Assembly: GCA_030248215.1 (NCBI GenBank)
Contig: JASANG010001107.1
Span: 124,001 to 188,000, forward strand
Length of the DNA stretch: 64,000 nt
From: Enoplolaimus lenunculus
Lineage: Eukaryota
Direction of reading: 5' to 3'
The notes beneath the pieces are model-generated. The model saw only the letters and a list, made by a program, of their open reading frames with translations. It did not search any database and was not told the origin of the DNA. The stretch's first letter is position 1; the number at the start of each line of letters is the position of its first letter. The translations under genes and the position numbers were made by a program. Of the stretch, positions 7,283 through 58,200 are shown one piece after another.

Positions 7283-7389
7283 CAAACTTTTATACTTTAT
7301 ACTGTTTCTTATCCCAAAATAGTTACCTCTGCTTGTATGCTTAAACATTATAGCAATCAAAATTAACAGGGTTATGACGTAAAATTAGT

Positions 7390-10300
7390 ATGAATCTAGA
7401 CGATATTCTTGTCAACCATATAGGTGATTTTGGCCGCTACCAAATAGTGCAACTTGGGTTATTGATTTTACCATGCATTTACATTTCAATGCAGTCCGTA
7501 TCGTGGACGTTCACCGGTGCAAAAGTTGATTATCGATGTCGCTTGGGTCATTTCGACGTTGTGTACGAGTTGCCCCCTTCACTGAAAAAACCAACAACTT
7601 ATGGCGAAGCGATTGACAACAGCTCAAAAACATCTCAACCACAATCTCAATTGGATACAAACAAAACGAAAGTTGATTTTAAAAGCTACAAATGCTACGT
7701 TCCTATACAACGTATGTTAAATGTTCAATTTGAAAACAAAACAGGGTACACGCAAAACATTATTAAAAAATATGCTGCTATGAATCCAGAAGACGAAATT
7801 CTCGCTATAACATCAGGCGCAACACCAGAGAACGTCGAAAATATTGCATTCGCCGAGGAAAATTCAACAATTTCAGATGAAGAAGCGAAAATTATTGCTC
7901 ACAACGTGTTGCGCACGAAATGTCGTCATTGGTTGTACGACGCGAGCGAAATTTCGTATTCAGCAATAATGCGCTGGAATATCGTGTGCGACCGCAGTCA
8001 TTTTCGTGCACTGGTACAATCGATGTATTATGTTGGACAAGGAATCGGGTCGTTAGCGTTTGGGTATATTGGCGACCGGTTTGGACGAAAAACTGCGTTT
8101 ATTACAGCCGCGTGGATGTTGTGCTTTTCGAGTAAGTTTTTTTTAAAATATAGAAGCAACGTTTTAAATTAGTAAAACTTTGAGCTTAGCAGTGGTCGTA
8201 GGTTACAGATTAGGGTTTTTTATACACTTTCTTTATATTTACTATTAAAATGTTATTTGCTAATAAATTTTTACAATTGAAAACATCGCCTTTTAGCGGA
8301 AGCTGTGAAATTATTTAAAATGCGCTTAACAAAGCATTTTAAATTTCTTAAAATACAGCCCAGGGACGTAACCAAAGCATCGGCCAAAGAACCACAAGGC
8401 TCTATGAGAGAAATAGGCTTAAAAACATAACCACATTCAGGGCATAACCGGATGTCTGCATATGGCTTCGGTTCCGGCAGAAAATCGACCTCCGACTCCG
8501 ATACAACTTTTGCCGGTGGTTCCGGTAATTTCGGTAGTAAAAATTTTGCACAGGTCTGCAAAATTTATCTGTGTGGCGCGTTTCGTTTTAACTTTTGACA
8601 TAATTTTGAAAAAAGGATTGCCGAGATTTCGAAAAATATAACCGTAAAACTAAACGATTTGACAACACATTACAGCTATTTGCGAAAATTAACAAATTAA
8701 ACATCATTTTAACTACCTAATTTCGCCTCACCGCCGGCTTTACCCACGGCTCCAGCAAATTTTGCTGACCTCCGGCTCCGGCTCCGGTATTTTTCACCTC
8801 CGGTTGTATCCTGCCGCATATACTCAAGAATCCGACGAATTTAAAACACATACAAATTTAATACATGTGTGATTCATATTGCTTATTGCTTGTATAAGAG
8901 TGAGTGATTGGCACTTGAACAAGAGTATACAACTAGGTATATTCTGTGTCGATAAGAGTATAATACCTCTTTTGTTTATCGGGAGACACCGATCCAGTTT
9001 TTCAGTTTTAAGCTGTTGCATTTAAATTCCGAACGCTATCGAATGGCTTCGGTAATATATTCCTAGATGCTGTGTTCATTGTGCGTTAGTAGGAACGTCA
9101 CACCAAAAAAATGGAGTGGGATAAGTAGGTCCAACATCCAACGCGCCCCGGTAGATTTTGTATCACGCAAACAAAGGTAAGTTGAGTAAATATTCTTCAA
9201 AGAGTCATCGAAATCAATTGCCAAACACAAATCAAATTTCAGGTATCGCAATGGCGATTGTTCCATGGATTGAACTGTTCGCAATTTTGCGTCTCGTTGC
9301 GGGTTTTGCACATCCGGGTATATTTGTAGTCGCAATCGTTATCGGAATGGAACTGGTCGGTCCATCAAAACGTGCTATTGGCTCAATTTCGGCAAATCTT
9401 GCGTTTTCAATCGGTCAAATTGGTCTAGTTTCAACAGCGGTTTTGATTCGGAACTATCAACATTTACAACTTGCGCTCTCGCTGCCGTGCATTGTTTTCT
9501 TGACCTATTATTGGCTAATGCCAGGCTCAGTACGATGGTTAATTTCGCAACGCCGCTATTCAGAAGCGGATCACATTTTGCGTCGAGTTGCTAAAATCAA
9601 TGGACGCTCATTGCCCGATGGTTGGTACCATGAGCTAGAAAATCATAGTTCTTTGCAGTCAAAGCAAGCGACCAATGATCTTGCATCAACACATAACGAA
9701 CAGCGCCGCATTAACCAATCGTTATGGGTTAAAATTAAACATCTTCCACAAATTATCTGCAGTGGTGGAAATCGCACGACTGACGCGATCGCCACAGAAC
9801 AACATAGGTTAAATTTTTTCGATCTATTTCGTACTCCATATTTGCGGAAATGTTCGTTAGTTCAGTTTGTAAGCTGGCCCACAGTCAGTATGGTCTACTA
9901 CGGGATATCAATGGATCCATCATTTTTAGGCGGTGATCGATATATGACCTTTTTCCTGTCGGCAATTATCGAAATCCCTGGCGTATTTCTGGCTGCGGGT
10001 TTGATTAATCGTGTGGGTAGAAAAGCGCTCATGATAGCATCGTTTGCGCTGTCAGGCGTATTCATGATGGGTGCGCTGTTTTTGAACCACGGCTCGACAA
10101 CACGGTTAGCAATCGGTTGTGTGGTATGCGCTAAAATGACCATTACTGCTGCGTATACGGTGATATACGCGTGGGCACCAGAGCTGTTTCCGACTACGCT
10201 CCGAAATCAAGCAATGGGAGCGTGTTCGATGACAGCTCGGATTGGCGGTGTAGTTGCGTCGTATTTGATAATGTTGGTTGCGGAACACTCGAAAAATACG

Positions 10301-10621
10301 GTTTCGTTAATTTTCGGCGTGCTTTCGTTGATCGCCGCAACGCTTTCATTGTTGCAACCGGAAACTGCAGGTGCAGTGACACTAGAAGGCGTTGGTGATG
10401 CAGAACAATTTGGTGCCGCGTCTCGGGTGTTCACGTTTCGCCCCCCAACAGCGTTTAGGGCACAATGTGATAGTTATGATAAAAGTCGACATCAAATGAA
10501 CAGTATGACAAGAGGGGCGGAAGAAAATAGCGACGCGTACCGTCGAGTTGAAGAGACTGACGAAGAAGTGGTCAGTAGTCGAACTACTGAATCGGCTGTT
10601 TTGATGAATGATACCGGATAA
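7390..10621 (+). CDS. SLC22-family (organic cation/anion/zwitterion) MFS transporter, 2 exons: 7390-8131 + 9243-10621, ~706 aa
   Basis: SLC22 motifs GDFGRYQ, WNIVCDR, GDRFGRK, ELVGP, PGSVRWL (PESPRWL-like), NRVGRK, ELFPTTLRN and PETAG. A phase-1 intron (gtaagt at 8132, tttcag ending 9242) joins the two ORF-track fragments in frame. Confidence 0.93.
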
Positions 10622-44800: not shown

Positions 44801-47800
44801 TATGAGGCAAATGAAAGACGCGGAAATGTTTAAGTTTTCACAGAATCACACATCAATAAAGTTGTTTTGTTGAACCACTGTCCCATCTGTCGTTGGGTAG
44901 TACCGGGACAGTGTCCAAATTCCATCGACAACAAACTTAAATTCATGCCGACCACGAGGTAAATCAACGATAACCGACCTGCTTCCTTGCTTTGAAAAAT
45001 TACACCTGCTGCTGTTATTAGCATCCGAACGGTCATCAACACGTAAATCACTCATTTCCAGAAAACGATCCCAGTTACAAAAGCCACCAGTCAGCTTGAC
45101 ACTGTTACCCCACGCCTCATGCCAATAAATTGTAGTCGGCTTTAACCCCAAGAACGAAGAAGACTTATTGAGGTTATCCCACTCCATAACGCCGCTCTGT
45201 GTTGTTTTTAACAACGGCATGTCAGACTTCTGATTCTCAACAGCACAGTTACAGCCACCTTTGATTTGCGCAAGCGTGGATTCAGCAGTCATTTCTTCAT
45301 TAGTGTGCAGGTTCGTTGAATTATCAATACTGGGTGAAGTATCTCGATATTCAATTTCTACCTTCTCATCATCAGTTAATAAGGTTTCGCTCCATGTCGC
45401 TTTCTCCAAAGTTTCAGGAACCACGTCCCTCTCAACGCGTCTTGCATCTGCAGTTTTCGGCGAACAGACCCCACTAAAAATAAGAAGTAAAAACATTATC
45501 CGGCCTCAAAACTTCACCAAAACAATGCAGATGCTCAGCAAACAAAAACCATAAAAATAGTTCATAAAAATAGTTCGCGGAAATATATACACAAAAAAAT
45601 ACACTTTACAGCTTATAACAAAAAAAGTTAGCTTATCAGTAATTTATCTCATAAATGGGTTTAATCAGTCACCTTCTTTAGGTTACGCTAAAAATGACCA
45701 TGACCTCAACTTATGTTTCACACTTCTGGTTAGCAGTTTTTCAGAATGCATAAAAGTCTCAAGCTGTAGATAGGGAGATAACAGAACTCCTAAGTGACTT
45801 ATTACGATAATTGTTTAAAGTGATCAAATCGCTACCTCTGAAATGTATTTTTCCATAGTAGCCCAATAATTCAGGGTTCAACCAAATACCAAAATATCAG
45901 AGCTGAATACTTCAATATAGGGCTTTAATAATTTTGCCCCTGCGAGGGTCTTGGTAATAACTGTGTTTCTTATTCTTGGTATACCTATACACCGCAGCAG
46001 GTGGATGTCAATTTTTTGCGGTAGTCAGATATTAGGGTGCGCCCTATCTGCAGCACATTAATATACGTATAATAAAAAGAGTAAACAGGTTAAAAATGAA
46101 AAAGTTCTACGAGGGTCAAAATAAAGGTGCCAAAAACGAAAGCCACAAAAACAAATCCCAAACTAAAATAATGTGCGTTACGTAATAAAAACTATACGTG
46201 CTTGAAAGTTTAAGTGTTTAGAAGAACTCAAGAAGTTGTTTAAAGTACAATTCGGGACGTTCGCGTAGGCGAGTGTATTGAACAATTTATGCACTATGAC
46301 ATATAAAAATTATTCTGGCTTGCCCGAACGTTTCCACAGCAGATTTCGTTTGGAAAAAATCGACGAATAAGATTACTTTACTGGTTACCGAACTTCCGTG
46401 GTTACCGAACTTCCGAAGGTAAGTACGTAGTCAATTTTGTGTATTTAGCAGAGCTCAGCTCACTGATTAAAAGTTTTCAGTATGCATCCACAACCAGTTC
46501 GCAGCGATAAGTAACCGGTTAACCGGGTGTATTGAGCAGAGCTCACTGATTAAAAGGTTTGACAATGCATCCAGGACCAGTTTGCGAGTCTAAATTCAAC
46601 GTTTGAGTATCTAAAAATTTCCCTGTTTTAACGAGATGTCATTGTCCGCCCCACAAAAAGTGTAAAAATTGAGCCATTTTTGATACATTGTTATACAAAA
46701 ACAGCTTGCGAATATTTGTAAGTAACAACTGGTGCGAGTAGTATCTTACAAAAAATGTCGATTTCAAGAACTGTCATAATACTTCCGACTTGTTCGTTAA
46801 TTTTGAATGAGAAACAATGAGTGACCAATATCACACCCAAGCATTATAATATTATGCGCCGTTCACAATAATTTTGTCAACGGTGCCACAAAATATGCCA
46901 TAGCCCAAGGCTATCACGAGGTCATTTTTAAAATGACCTCGTGATAGCCTTGGGCTATGGCATATTTTGTGACACCGTTGACAAAATTATTCTGAACGGC
47001 GCATAATATTATAATGCTTGGGTGTGATATTGGTCACTCATTGTTTCTCATTCAAAATTAACGAACAAGTCGGAAGTATTATGACAGTTCTTGAATGAGA
47101 AACAATGAGTGACCAATATCACACCCAAGCATTATAATATTTTGCGCCGTTCACAATAATTTTGTCAACGGTGCCACAAAATATGCCATAGCCCAAGGCT
47201 ATCACGAGGTCATTTTTAAAATGACCTCGTGATAGCCTTGGGCTATAAGCGAAATCGCTTATAGCTCAGGGCTATCACGTGTCAGCACCGTCCTCGAAAC
47301 TCGTGATAGCCCTGAGCTATCACAAAATTTCCTCTTCTATATATATTTATATTCATAACACACATATGTTTATGTGTGTTATGAAACGTGATACCAGCAA
47401 ATTCATTTTTAAAATTTTAATCCTCTGCTCTGCACGATAGCTCAATGCTATGAGGAGTTTTGTGGCAAACCTTAAATTTTGAAACACTGAGTGGACTTGG
47501 AAAAATTTTCACGCTTTACAGACTGAAAAATTTTTAGGCGTAAGGTGTCTAGAAATATTTTGAACAAAGTGGAAAAAATTTTCAGGCGTAAGGGTGTCTA
47601 GAAATATTTTCAGGCGTTTTATGGAGTGTCTACAAACTTTGCTGAAAGTCGTGCACTGCTCTTTATACATGGGCCTTTTATTTTCAGAACGCGTGATCCA
47701 AATCAATTGTGGGCGACTGACACGCAGTCAGAATTGATCAGAATGGCATTCAACAATACGCTTTTTACGGCAACTGATATTTTGTCAGACACTTTTTTGG

Positions 47801-50800
47801 CCAATGTAAACAACAGGGGCGAAACAAAACCATATAAGCCTTGGGCTAAGCCTATACAAGCAAAAAAATTTAATCTATAAAGCCTAAGCTACTCTAATGA
47901 GTCGTAAAATATGTAGTATTCAAGTGTTTTATGTATAGTATATAAAAATATAGAAGTTACGGCCCATGTAAACATCAGGGGCGCAGAGTTTTTCTGTTTG
48001 ACTAGAATAGAGTATATAAGCTTTAAGCGCTCGCCTCTGTTCTTTACATTATCCGAGGTTATACTAGCGACGAACCCAAGTACCCAAAATCTCCAATAAC
48101 GAAACATTTTAATCCGCATCAGGTGTTGGATTTCTCTTAATACTTGGCACTCAAGCCATAGTCGAACCTATGAATTTATATTGGAATTTATCGTTTATCA
48201 AATTATAAAACAGTTAGCAATAAAAAACTAATACGTTCTCGAAATGTACCGTAGTACTCGTTTTCACAATATAAAATTAAACTTTCAACGGCGATTATTT
48301 TTGTTTCTGTAAAATGCTGACTTTTGCTTTTGTAATGCTAAACTACAATCAACTGATTTGACTCTGAGTCTACACAAATGTCGGGACGGGCTCTTTTATA
48401 CCATAAAATTTGAGTATCATTGGCTCCCTCTCTTTCATATCTTTAGCAGTAAAACTAGCTGACCGGCTAACTGACCTAGCAGTAAAGGGTAAATGGACTA
48501 GGTATATCTTTCGTACCATAAAATTTTCCATCTTCCTCAAAATTTTAAAAATCGAACGGTGCCACAAAATTTGCCCTAGTTCAGGGCTAAAACGAATATT
48601 TGCAAATTTTAAGATGTGTAACTTGATAGCTTTGTGTGTTGTTTGTGTGTTAATTTGCGTTGTGTGCGTTTGTATTGTGTTTGTGTATGTGGTGTGAGTG
48701 GCTAAATTCGAGGTGGTTTGTGATAGCTCAGGGCTATCACGAGTTTCGAGGACGGTGCTGACACGTGATAGCCCTGAGCTATAAGCGATTTCGCTTATAG
48801 CCCAAGGCTATCACGAGGTCATTTTAAAAATGACCTCGTGATAGCCTTGGGCTATGGCATATTTTGTGGCACCGTTGACAAAATTATTGTGAACGGCGCA
48901 TTAAAAGCAATTTTACAATGAAAAGGTTAAAAGCGTAACACTACTCCACTTGGCTTCGAGCCAACCAAGCTACCAGAAATTTAATCGCTGCACCTATTTT
49001 AAAAATTGAACATTACATATCAATCTTATTCGCTCGCACAATGAAATTCAGTTTTTCTCATGCACGCCCTCAAGCAGTTTAAAGATAGAACGAAAGTAAT
49101 GGATGAACTTAATCGTTGCGTATTTGCAGTATAAGAACTTGGTAGTTTCAAGTGGTTAACGCGATCAAATTTTATTCCCAACACGTTATTTACGACTTTA
49201 TGGCAATGAGTAGATTAATCAAAGTCTGTAATAAAAGTGGAAGAATTATTACTCTTACCATTGGTTTAATTGAACGAAGTGACAAGCAGGGTGCAGTACA
49301 TCGTTAATTATACCGGATTCGAAGCAGGATATTTATACCGAAATCGGAATTAGATATTTTCAAAGCCAATATTTTTTACATACGGAGTCTTATTATATGC
49401 AATTACATAGTATGCGACAGATAAGCATAATGTACCTGATTTAGCATGCATATTATTTATGCTTTTGTAATAATTTATATGTTTATATAAGAAATGTGCG
49501 CTGAAAACGGATATACGCACCGGTTATGCAACTTAAAAGTACTACACTATTTTAAATGATACAGGTTAGAAACTACGTATAATTTTACGATATCAATTAA
49601 TTATATATACCTGCAATCTGAATCGGAAGTTAGTTTCAGTCAGAATTCTAATTGGAATCAGAATCTCGTTTGCACCTTGGCAATAAGTAAAGTTGTACTG
49701 AAAAATGTGTAGCATCACACAAAGGTTAGCCACTCAACACCAATATTCACGAAACAATGTGCCAGGGAAGGGCCGTTTTATGTCAAGCATGCTCGTGTGC
49801 TCTACTAACTTTATTTTCACTTCTTCACCACTGGCTGAGACAACATTAGACATTTCCATTTGTAGATTCGCACACTGCGCTTCTGCATTCTTTTGCGCAA
49901 GTTTCGCATCATGTAAATCAGTTTCCAAATGGGTTATGCTGAAACTAGACGCCATAGTTCAATTAAATAATAAAACAAAAAACGAGTAGAATTAACAAAC
50001 AGTGCATTGGGCTTTCCGACAGTAACCTATTGGTTCAAATTGGTGTAACATAGGTACAGTAAAATTAATTCGTTGGTGAAATTATTTTTACTTCTACTGG
50101 GGGTCCTGGATTTAACCATCGAAGTCACAATAACACAAGCAAAATACAGCTATCAAATTACGTTGCTTTCATTTCGTCAACTTGACTTTTAAGCGACGCA
50201 GATTCCGCTTGTGACAACTGCAGTGACATTGTCGTTTCTCCAATTTGAGCTTTCATTACTGCGACATCAGCTTCCAACGAGTTTTTGGCGTTTCGAGCAT
50301 TTTCCAATTCTTTGTATCTGAAATATTGATTACGTATTGTCGTGCTGGACACACCATGGTCTTTTGAAGCTTGACATAAAGCATGTATATATGTTCGCCT
50401 TGCATATGGTAATATTCCTTATTTTTGCCAACTCTAGTGGTAATAAGCTCTAGTTTATGAGTAACAGCCAACTCACCAGTCTGTGCTTGCGCTCCGCGGC
50501 GACAGGACATTGATGAAGCGCTGGCGGTAGAATATGTAAAGGGCCCACCAGGGTTCCACCGGAATTCCTGTAAAAATTCGATTCCTGTTCCGGCACTGAA
50601 AGACAGAGGAAATCGAATGTTTACGATTTCGCTGCTAATAATGAAGAACCAGGTAAAAAACAAAAACTTACGCCTCAAAATTTAATAGAAACACAGCTTC
50701 TTTTCACAACTTACGTTCCGTGCTCATATTCCTCATTTTTAGTTATCTGACGCATGTTTCTGTGGAACTTGCAAGACTGGCTATGAAAACCCAAAATAGG

Positions 50801-52155
50801 TGAGGAGCAGGGATTTTTATCTCCTCACAATTGCCCTTAAATTCAAACAATTAAACTAAGAAATCGCCTCCGAAACTTATTTTTTTTTACTTTATTCATT
50901 ACTTAGGAATAATGGTACAAACGCAACGATTGAAAATATTCACAAAACTACCACCAGCTCCAATTATAACAGACGTAGCACAAATATGAAAATTTGCTGA
51001 TCAACTGTGTAAAACCTCATTCACTTTGCTTGTATTGCGCAATTTTAATTTTACTTGTTTACTTCACCACGCCCACGACATATCCATTTTAAAGTTGTAT
51101 CAGGCATTACGTGACCTTTAATGCAACAGCTGGCTGCTTAGGTTTCTCCCAATTTAAATTCCTGGCAACGCTCCTAGCCAAAGTACGAACCTAGCTTCGT
51201 CAACACTATTTTCATGACTTGATATTTCATCTCTTTGACGCCTTGCTTCATCCAAGGCGAGTTTAAGGTTATTAATTTCGACAGCCGTTTGTTTGTCCTG
51301 AAAGGAGAGGCAAATTTTTGCAAAGTATTTGATGCAGTACAACAAGGATAATTTTCAGAAAACACCCAATGTTAAACACATCCATAACTATCTGTTGCAT
51401 ATCATGGTAACCACAGTATGGTACCTTCATCTGAAACAATGGCCTCAGCAGTCAATTCATATATCACCGCGCATTTCTGAGCAGGAAAATGCAGAGTCAA
51501 ATAAGATCAAAGCGATGTGTGTAGTTTAGTGAAGTATCAACATGCATCATAGACCATTAGCCTTCGTTCAAGGAATATAAATTTACCGGATACCGGATAG
51601 CAAATTTTCTGTGGAACCGGAACCGGTTAGCAAATTTTCTGTGGAACATCATAGACCATTAGCCTTCGTTCAAGGAATATAAATTTACCGGATACCGGAT
51701 AGCAAATTTTCTGTGGAACCGGAACCGGTTAGCAAATTTTCTGTGGAACCGGAACCGGTTAGCAAATTTTCTGTGGAACCGGAACCTACAACGGTAAATA
51801 TCCGTAAATTTGTACCAGACACCGACACCGGTATCGGTTTTTCACCACATATTAAAATTAATCGAATCCGCACACTGCATTATTGCACTTTACTTTTGCA
51901 TTGCATCATTGCACCTTATTTTTCACTGCATTACTGCACCTTACTTTTGCATTGCATTATTGCACCTTACTTTTGCATCGATTTCACGCTCTAGGGCAGT
52001 CAACCGTGCTTGAGTTGCTGTTTTTTGAGCTGCCCACATTTCCAAATCTTGACGATACTTCAGTAGTTCAGCGACGTTATCATTTCGCATCGTTTCAAGT
52101 TCTGTTGTTAACTGATCAATTCGACTTTGCTGAGATTCATTCTCCGCCGAAAAAA

Positions 52156-52213
<58 letters not shown>

Positions 52214-55200: not shown

Positions 55201-58200
55201 GATCATTTCTTTATAGTGCTTATGCGGATACTCACGAAAGTGTGTCGATTATTACCGAATAATAATATGCAGATTTTTGTTCTACATGTCGCAAAACATA
55301 TGAGTAACTTACTCGATACGATTCAGCTGATCTTTCAGTCGCTGACTCTCCTGAACCAATATGGAAAGTGCAAGTTTTTCTCACAACATGAGTATATACA
55401 AGAAGCACAGAACCACTAGCGTTCTACTTTGAAATGCACAACCAAGATATTCAAATTTTTAAGTACAATTCCATCGCCATAAGCTACATTCGTGTTTATC
55501 GTAGTCAAAAACATAATTTGAGTCCGTATATAAAGCACGACTACGCTTACCTCACGCAACTGTTTCACAACTTGAGGGCCAGACGCAGCGTTTTGAACCG
55601 CCGTTTCGGCTTGTTGTTTTGCTTGCGACTCCATAATCTTTTGATAATTCATGATTTTAGTGTTATATTCTTGAATCTGCTGATTAAATTTCGTATTCAT
55701 TTCCTAAAATCGAAATATAACGAGCTAAAACTGTACGCCAATTCATGGTACACTACATTACAGAACAATTATACCACTGTTGCATGCACGATCCATATAT
55801 AGTATATATGGCGTAAGCAAAAATTGAAATAAAATTTGCGCGAAGTTTGCAAATCTATACACTGAAATACTGAAATAAAATTGCTTATAAAAAACCAAAA
55901 GAATTTTCAAAATGACCAATAGTCCAGTCACGGTTTGATAGGGCAGCCATACAATCAATTAAAGTAGCATAAAACATTTCCCAGCATTGAGCTTCGTTTA
56001 ATCCCTTCAAAGAATTTGACTTTAAGTGAAGCGAGGCACTTCGTTCAATATTTGAAGCCCGCTGCGTTTTAAGGATCAAGACCATACGCCCAAATTTTTC
56101 TTAAAAAACACGACCGAAACTTGATGTATTGTCTAGCAAAAATAATTGTAATTTTAATCCCACTTTGAACAAAGCTGATCAGGTACGTTAATTTGAATAG
56201 AATTGCCCAATATCCATGTTTAAAAATCGCCTTAACACACCTGGATTTTGTCTTGGTACCTACGCTCAGTAGTCTGTTTCTGCTGCATAAGGTCCGAAAA
56301 CTGACGCTCAAACGTTGAATATCGAGTTATCGTTTGTTTAAGTTCATCCCTAAAAGAGTAAATAGTCAGCATGTACCAGCAATATCAATTGTACTGTCAA
56401 GTGTAAATACTTTCTAACTGACACCATCAACAATTAATACAGCAAGTTTTAGATAATTTTCAAACAAAATTACAGGCCAAAGTTTAGGAACTAGTTACAA
56501 TCAGCATAAAACATCGCGTGTTCTATTTACATTAAATGGAACTAAATGGACGAAAAATTTTTTGTGACTCTCAAAACAATTTATATACCCCTTTCACACG
56601 CTTTGTTTCAGGCCGAATTTCTATTGCTTCGTTAAAGCAGAAGCCGTCTGCGACCTACAATCTGTATATTAACTAAATTGACAAAAATAGAGCAATAAGT
56701 AAAATAAAACCTAACAATGTATATACCCCATATCACGAATTTTATTGTTAGCATCTTGAAGCATTGCATCTTTGCGGCTAAGTTGTTCATCTTTATCTGC
56801 CAGCTGCTTGTAAACATCAGAGGCGTTATTACTTGTCGTTTGAACACTTAACACGTTCTGTAGTATTAAAAATTCAAAATTAAATATGCGCCCTTAAACA
56901 CCAATGACAATTTGTATAGTACCGGCCAGGGATGAGCGGTCTTGGTCAAAAATGGTGACTCTGTCTTCCGGGACCGAGATTGCTGGCCTCAGTCTCGGTC
57001 AATTTTTAACAGTTACAGAAAATAAAAAATTTCTAGCGAAATCTTTCAATGCTTTTTCGAACCTTACCACCAATTACGATAGACTCGTCACCTATATGAA
57101 CCTGTAAACCAAACCTAAACACAACAATACCTTGTTATCTGAACTTTAGCGACTCGTAAACGAGCATACTATTTTCAAATCATGGTTTCTTATGTGAAAT
57201 ATGAAGTATTCACCCACTTTCTTTCAAAGAAACCCAGCGATATTCAAAAAACCCACCAGAAATCCCACAAGCACTTCTACTTGTTTTTCACATAAAATCA
57301 AACTCAGACAAATATATTTTTGCTACCTTTGTTGTGTTGCGTGCTAGCATGCTTTTCTCATCACCACTTTGCTATAAGAGCTTAACGCGAGACCACATAG
57401 GGCTCTCATGTCTTGTGGAGATTTTGTGCTACAGAATGCATATAATACTAATAGTGAACAATAATTAACATTCACCTTTAGTTTCTCTAACACGACTTCG
57501 ACATTACAATTAGCAAACATCAGCAAACGTAGCTCAAAACAGATCAATTAAATATATTCTAAGAAAATATTATATTAATATAAACCTACTTTAATACAGT
57601 TTGTTGCGTGTATATTGTGTTCAGTTAAAATGCGCACGATTTGCTTAATTTCGCTTTCGTCAAACTCGATGGCTTTTAGCTGAGCCAAGATCTCCTTCGA
57701 CTGAGCTTAAATTTAATAAATATGCCATATTTACGGTATGAAAATGTAAACTCGATGCAAGATATTTATCTGATAATGAAAATAATTATGATAGCATGTC
57801 TTCGATAAGAAATTGCTCCAATCTCTGCAAATGTGCCGATTTTTCGTAATCCAGAAAGTACAAACAGCTCATATATCGGCTACCTGCTGGCTTCTTTCTA
57901 TCGTCCCGGGGTTCTGTAATAGAAGTCGGTTTTGGTTCTTCAGGCACCACATGCTGCATGTCAATATGCTGAGTGTGTGCCGGCTCTAATAAACTTTGTT
58001 TGTGATTTTTCACAACAATTTCGTGCGCAGCAATTTCAGCACTTGGTGTATCCAATTGCGACGTGTTTTCTACAACCAACATTACGATACACTAAACACC
58101 ACTAAGCTTGCTGTCAAGATTACTCCACTAAACTTATGGCGGGTTGAACAATTAAGCGGTGACACGAGACTTCCGCTGTAAAATTAGTTTTGCTATTGTG

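Follow-up and report, generated by a model that had tools for sequence, protein, structure and literature searches.

The stretch of DNA analyzed here (the window) comprises 64,000 nucleotides (nt) of contig JASANG010001107.1 from Enoplolaimus lenunculus (assembly GCA_030248215.1, positions 124,001 to 188,000 of the forward strand) and carries a kinectin-like gene, one intron of which contains a 628-nt candidate last exon ending in a CBM48 domain. The gene lies on the minus strand, as do all features below unless stated, and was rebuilt from sequence as 16 exons running from 61027 to 49810, with 857 codons in all and a phase-2 end. From there the frame can be continued in two ways, as a preliminary description of the locus had correctly reported: the donor gttagt at 49810, which closes the last shared exon (49938-49810; 129 nt, entered and left in phase 2), is followed by acceptors at 45473 and 42754 that both continue the open frame. 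Joining the 16 shared exons to exon 45473-44846 gives a product of 1066 amino acids (aa), rather than the approximately 1091 aa first estimated, with a single stop, at its end. Joining them instead to the competing phase-2 exon 42754-42637 continues the full-length kinectin form, which takes in 12 more exons (28 in total) and comes, in the model, to 1267 aa without a stop, its last exon being provisional. The C-terminal coiled-coil-like exons of this long form span 38652-33570, including an additional in-frame exon (33647-33570) beyond the 28-exon model. Upstream boundaries of the model are partly uncertain, with weak acceptors at 57705 and 52141. A TAT trinucleotide microsatellite occupies approximately 52150-52210, just upstream of the latter, a GAG acceptor, and the real acceptor may lie a few codons later.

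The first coding exon (61027-60797) encodes a transmembrane segment at aa ~5-25 together with a Lys-rich stretch. This is the single hydrophobic segment of the 1066-aa form, with a hydropathy of 3.35 compared with at most 1.3 for all others, and agrees with the N-terminal anchor first proposed. Exons 2 to 16 (60481-49810), common to both forms, encode a disordered region (aa ~111-305) and then a helical, coiled-coil-like region (aa ~306-857), the coiled coil being read from composition and from non-specific Pfam coiled-coil matches. Searches of Pfam, proteins, PDB, and Atlas with single kinectin exons, the spliced protein not serving as query, returned no family match. Family identity was instead indicated in the long form, where 36264-36193 (aa 1108-1131) encodes a motif corresponding to the site that binds CDR2 and eEF1B-beta, printed for 12 KTN1/RRBP1 proteins in the supplement of a CDR2 preprint (PMC11580933). 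By-eye, ungapped comparison with that alignment (Fig. S2H) gave identities of 12/24 to human KTN1, 13/24 to amphioxus, and 11/24 to Lingula, with five of eight invariant columns retained and two more changed conservatively. Based on this motif, the single N-terminal hydrophobic segment, and the basic stretch, the gene is, as judged from its sequence, a KTN1/RRBP1 homologue, in line with the initial assignment.

The preprint states that invertebrates have a single KTN1/RRBP1 homologue and that a KIF5 region follows the CDR2/eEF1B-beta site in KTN1 (PMC11580933). The origin of p180 is placed before Drosophila in one account (PMC9804665), contrary to another that terms it vertebrate-specific (PMC12491259) and gives a tandem decapeptide ribosome-binding repeat as a p180 feature. 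No such repeat was seen by eye in the translation, although a skipped exon could hold it. The CBM form would also lack the CDR2/eEF1B-beta site and the kinesin region, since the CBM exon lies upstream of both. The specifically rough endoplasmic reticulum (ER) location proposed in the preliminary description is unsupported, since the translation shows no p180 repeat to the eye and the CBM form would be without its eEF1B-beta site. That description had also not mentioned the loss of the CDR2/eEF1B-beta and kinesin-binding tail.

Several properties of the intron argue for use of the acceptor at 45473. Of the phase-2 frames that begin at the 343 AG sites of the 7055-nt intron, the one at 45473 is the longest (208 codons), a length reached in none of 500 intron shuffles (maximum, 180). 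The frame is open for only 11 codons upstream of this acceptor, and guanine-plus-cytosine (GC) content steps at it from 0.22-0.38 to 0.53. The 60 codons that precede the first internal in-frame ATG (45292) have a coding score of 0.24, with −0.06 and −0.11 in the other frames, a value matched by none of 322 overlapping intron windows (maximum, 0.13); the codon model was trained on the window's own genes and partly reflects GC content. Five out-of-frame ATGs also precede ATG 45292. The acceptor scored 5.8, exceeding 10 of the gene's own 27 acceptors by leave-one-out scoring, and the donor at 49810, a member of the scoring model's training set, scored 8.4. An own first exon for the CBM48 sequence is poorly supported: only 4 of 241 GT sites between 49780 and 45520 score at least 3 while ending a phase-2 frame that begins with ATG, and as these candidates are short (13-18 codons) and low scoring (3.8-4.8), none is convincing. 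Given the coincidence of frame and GC step at the acceptor, the coding score ahead of the first internal methionine, the out-of-frame ATGs, and the lack of a good first exon, we consider it probable that 49810 is spliced to 45473, over the alternatives of a nested gene and a silent insert. Downstream of the stop, a stretch at 44785-44760, with AATATA (44780) ahead of a T-rich tract, may constitute a non-canonical poly(A) signal. Use of the exon as an internal cassette was considered and is unlikely, with the two best phase-2 donors (5.9 and 5.7) cutting inside the domain.

The exon encodes an acidic linker, the CBM48, and a TGA stop, as initially described. HMMER comparison with Pfam, a check that the preliminary description had proposed, assigned positions 45142-44849 to AMPK1_CBM (PF16561; E 2.8e-15; 56.7 bits, the curated cut-off being 26.8), the sole family in the exon; no AMPKBI domain follows the CBM, as the stop comes directly after it. 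A PDB sequence search with the CBM returned 16 sequences, every one AMPK-beta or Sip2. An AlphaFold model built on a 27-row alignment, including 26 distant relatives, had a predicted local distance difference test score (pLDDT) of 84.6 and was low only in an inserted loop of approximately 17 residues; a single-sequence fold reached a pLDDT of 41. Structure comparisons again placed AMPK/SNF1 beta CBMs first, both with Foldseek (best, 4yee, E 1.7e-8) and with VIA-align (Z 12.7-13.5, root mean square deviation [rmsd] of ~2; one match with Z 13.4, rmsd 2.1, and 84 aligned residues).

In AMPK, W100, K126, W133, L146, and T148 are sugar contacts whose mutation lowers binding (McBride et al., PMC2642990). 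Three of the five are retained here (W100, K126, and W133, with equivalents at 45073, 44938, and 44917), as is N150 (44866), so that the initial claim of retained glycogen contacts stands for these four positions. It does not extend to the hairpin, where L146 is replaced by V and T148 by Q in the ungapped HMMER register, as well as G147 by V, changes that count against a glycogen-binding product. Positions 146-148 vary in other C-terminal CBM48s too, and binding by the plant protein PTST depends on two Trp residues equivalent to W100 and W133 (PMC4339375). With both Trp, the Lys, and N150 kept, glycogen binding by this CBM48 is likely, if uncertain, on the sequence.

The same gene contains, upstream of the CDR2/eEF1B-beta site, a further module that did not figure in the preliminary description. 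Its three exons, 31, 144, and 65 nt long (40309-40279, 39933-39790, and 39449-39385; 240 nt together, entered and left in phase 0), sit within the phase-0 intron between 40581 and 38652, keep the reading frame of the kinectin exons on either side, and encode an EF-hand pair resembling the N-lobe of calmodulin. Pfam matched EF-hand_1 at E 2.4e-8, alignment of the 144-nt exon to calmodulin covers residues 13-58, and both calcium loops look canonical by eye. The sizes of 31 and 144 nt match those of calmodulin exons 2 and 3. No calmodulin C-lobe exon was found, nor was there a strong ATG-only first exon (three sites, best score 4.0). For these two reasons the module, if used, would most simply be spliced into kinectin; read-through past 39385 would instead supply an ending of 22 codons. 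The CBM and EF-hand modules occupy the two longest of the gene's 27 introns (7055 and 1928 nt), and the presence of two in-frame foreign modules in these introns offers circumstantial sequence support for exon capture. An 89-nt candidate exon at 40203-40115 (splice scores of 6.4 and 7.0), which may be due to chance, would, placed after the 31-nt exon, keep the frame open from phase 0 to phase 0 while skipping the EF hands.

Relatives of the CBM were collected by a HMMER search over 1.84 billion representatives, which gave 121 matches. In a tree built by a quick method (120 rows and 93 columns; two of the 121 matches were dropped for want of a 60-residue match), the CBM fell in no strongly supported group and shared no more than 45% identity with any of its 119 relatives, yet is intact. 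C-terminal CBM48s of similar sequence follow a coiled coil (P0083), a B-box-like region plus coiled coil (P0205), or a disordered stretch (P0084), and these cases show the module attached to varied proteins. Two proteins, P0205 and P0026, in which B-box-like and coiled-coil (TRIM-like) regions end in a CBM48, suggest a glycogen-targeted TRIM-type protein. Long matches with late CBMs (P0041 and P0102), as well as the plant protein P0105, were considered as kinectins and rejected. The former two, one from an MMETSP transcriptome, have 1260-1575 aa, an N-terminal coiled coil, a center without a Pfam match, and two C-terminal CBM48s. A hydrophobic N-terminus was seen in 30 of the 121 matches, which by eye look like secreted bacterial proteins, and the 43 loci recovered in a metagenome scan were all distant CBM48s.

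The case for a CBM48-ended kinectin has to be set against a number of points. Its 49810-45473 junction is predicted from genomic sequence. The acceptor ranks 19th among the 343 AG sites of the intron, the CBM stretch itself scores just 0.03 in the codon test, and no AATAAA occurs within 1436 nt after the stop (chance probability 0.31, hence not unusual). None of the 121 CBM matches resembles either kinectin half (best blastp E 0.26), and Pfam scans of 19 plus 9 of these relatives found no kinectin family, so that the KTN1/RRBP1 homologs with a C-terminal CBM48 that the preliminary description had suggested looking for did not appear; this test of fusion is weak, as kinectin relatives themselves were not retrieved by the protein search either. 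Word-index searches, also weak tests, returned none from 1131 candidates for the CBM exon against proteins of 365-2000 aa and none from 22 at E 10 for the CBM part alone. A kinectin exon likewise found nothing (0 of 144 candidates), which shows that the species and its close kin are probably absent from the word-index protein collection, so these blanks say little. Finally, a foldback repeat resembling a miniature inverted-repeat transposable element (MITE), with no strand assigned, lies at 46763-48901, which is upstream of the CBM exon by 1.3 kb, with inverted arms of 184 nt (100% identity) and 166 nt (99%) and nested palindromes. No other copy was found by blastn within the window, and the near-perfect arms, on sequence grounds, show recent mobile-DNA activity.

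A rival explanation is an independent nested gene on the same strand that would make a small soluble glycogen-binding protein. Such a gene could begin at the in-frame ATG 45496, giving a single exon of 216 aa, at an unrecognized first exon, or, through leader trans-splicing at 45473, at ATG 45292 (149 aa). ATG 45496 has an A at −3, short proteins with a disordered N-terminus and a C-terminal CBM48 exist (P0023, P0056, and P0052), Atlas lists AMPK1_CBM clusters of 119-127 aa, and the phase match is weak by itself: 7 of the 27 modeled introns are phase 2, and the chance of a match is about 1 in 4 to 1 in 3. However, ATG 45496 is followed by eight codons that make up the T-rich tract ending in the TAG acceptor, ATG 45292 is preceded by the out-of-frame ATGs and the 60 coding-like codons described above, and the 241 GT sites yielded no good first exon, which together make a nested gene unlikely. 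The foldback repeat, for its part, would suit a scenario in which another gene's last exon was recently copied into the intron (e.g., brought in by the neighboring foldback element) and is not expressed, or in which the exon is an assembly insertion, the frame matching by chance. The middling acceptor, the lack of a canonical poly(A) signal, and the absence of an orthologous fusion among the 121 representative matches fit this scenario, and a young copy would stay intact without selection. Yet the repeat arms do not include the exon, a second intact module, likewise in frame, has three exons with good splice sites, and no second CBM copy was found in the window, the only region covered; we judge a silent insert the least probable of the explanations considered. 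Slightly more credit, though still little, goes to the exon being spliced on in a product that is no plain tether, namely, a glycophagy or ER-phagy receptor like STBD1 or Atg45, an enzyme scaffold like PTST, or a poor glycogen binder. STBD1 and yeast Atg45 do combine a glycogen-binding domain with an autophagy function (PMC11145338), PTST combines a coiled coil and CBM48 to place GBSS on starch (PMC4339375), and here an acidic W-x-x-L motif (exon aa 98-101) immediately precedes the CBM, and the hairpin contacts differ from those of AMPK. Against this, four such core motifs in 208 aa make a single W-x-x-L unremarkable, and the variation at 146-148 is shared with other C-terminal CBM48s.

On balance, we lean toward the 628-nt exon being an alternative last exon that would yield a coiled-coil rod anchored in the ER, with a tip predicted to bind glycogen. 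In some cells, donor 49810 would join 45473 and the RNA would end at an intronic poly(A) site. The 1066-aa product would be anchored in the ER by its N-terminus and dimeric, like KTN1, and would for that reason hold two CBM48s approximately 850 residues out. The two Trp residues and the Lys would then bind glycogen, with avidity offsetting the changed hairpin, and the choice of last exon would switch the rod from a dock for motors and translation factors to a dock for glycogen.

The gene shares with KTN1/RRBP1 the single N-terminal membrane anchor, the basic stretch, the long coiled-coil-like body, and, in its long form, a CDR2/eEF1B-beta site ~160-200 aa from the C-terminus; it differs in its intronic, in-frame CBM48 terminal exon and EF-hand cassette and in that no decapeptide repeat was seen. 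The descriptions of the family consulted here give no CBM or EF hand (PMC9804665, PMC11580933, and PMC12491259), and the literature searched contained no work on kinectin or p180 with a CBM; most subscription journals were outside its scope, and database annotations of isoforms from invertebrates may already include such a form. STBD1 (genethonin-1), a vertebrate protein, combines a membrane segment with a CBM20 and an Atg8 motif and gathers glycogen into clusters at the ER (PMC11145338, PMC3622581, and PMC7648618). The protein proposed here would likewise pair an N-terminal membrane segment with a glycogen-binding module, but STBD1 carries a CBM20 and a proven Atg8-binding motif and has its own gene, whereas here a CBM48 (PF16561) sits on a kinectin rod with a core W-x-x-L only. 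STBD1 is not known to have a long coiled coil, and the likeness is one of analogy, not homology. Plant PTST1 resembles the CBM form in its coiled coil and C-terminal CBM48 that keeps the W100/W133 pair but is a soluble plastid protein that targets GBSS, with neither ER anchor nor kinectin ancestry; PTST is less than 300 aa long. The CBM48 of AMPK beta shares the fold and W100, K126, W133, and N150, and it differs in being followed by AMPKBI, in L146, G147, and T148, and in lacking the loop insertion. Yeast Atg45, Crp1, and Mdg1 likewise put PF16561 to non-kinase use in glycogen handling but have no ER rod. Atg45 is described as a soluble receptor confined to Saccharomycetaceae and Candida (PMC11145338).

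Elsewhere in the window lie an intronless 928-codon DUF229 gene (18097-15314; Pfam E 1.1e-108) and, on the plus strand, an SLC22-like MFS transporter in two large exons (7378-10621) with Sugar_tr and MFS_1 matches.

Glycogen particles have been observed on the ER and the sarcoplasmic reticulum (PMC3622581), and STBD1 is the anchor named for ER glycogen (PMC11145338, PMC3622581, and PMC7648618). As far as sequence can tell, the CBM48-ended form likely represents a novel kind of kinectin that would act in the manner of STBD1. More tentatively, kinectin in this animal may be a splice-controlled ER multi-tool, with one ending for motors and eEF1B, a captured CBM48 ending for glycogen, and a captured calmodulin lobe that, lying just upstream of the motor-binding part, makes the long form calcium-sensitive, such that an independent glycogen anchor of the ER or sarcoplasmic reticulum arose by exon capture. 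If the 49810-45473 junction is absent, the locus would hold only an ordinary nested CBM gene. If it is used, the CBM48-tipped isoform would be a separately evolved ER glycogen anchor and a direct handle on glycogen placement in an invertebrate, and it would represent a membrane scaffold toggled between motor and metabolite docking by the choice of its last exon.

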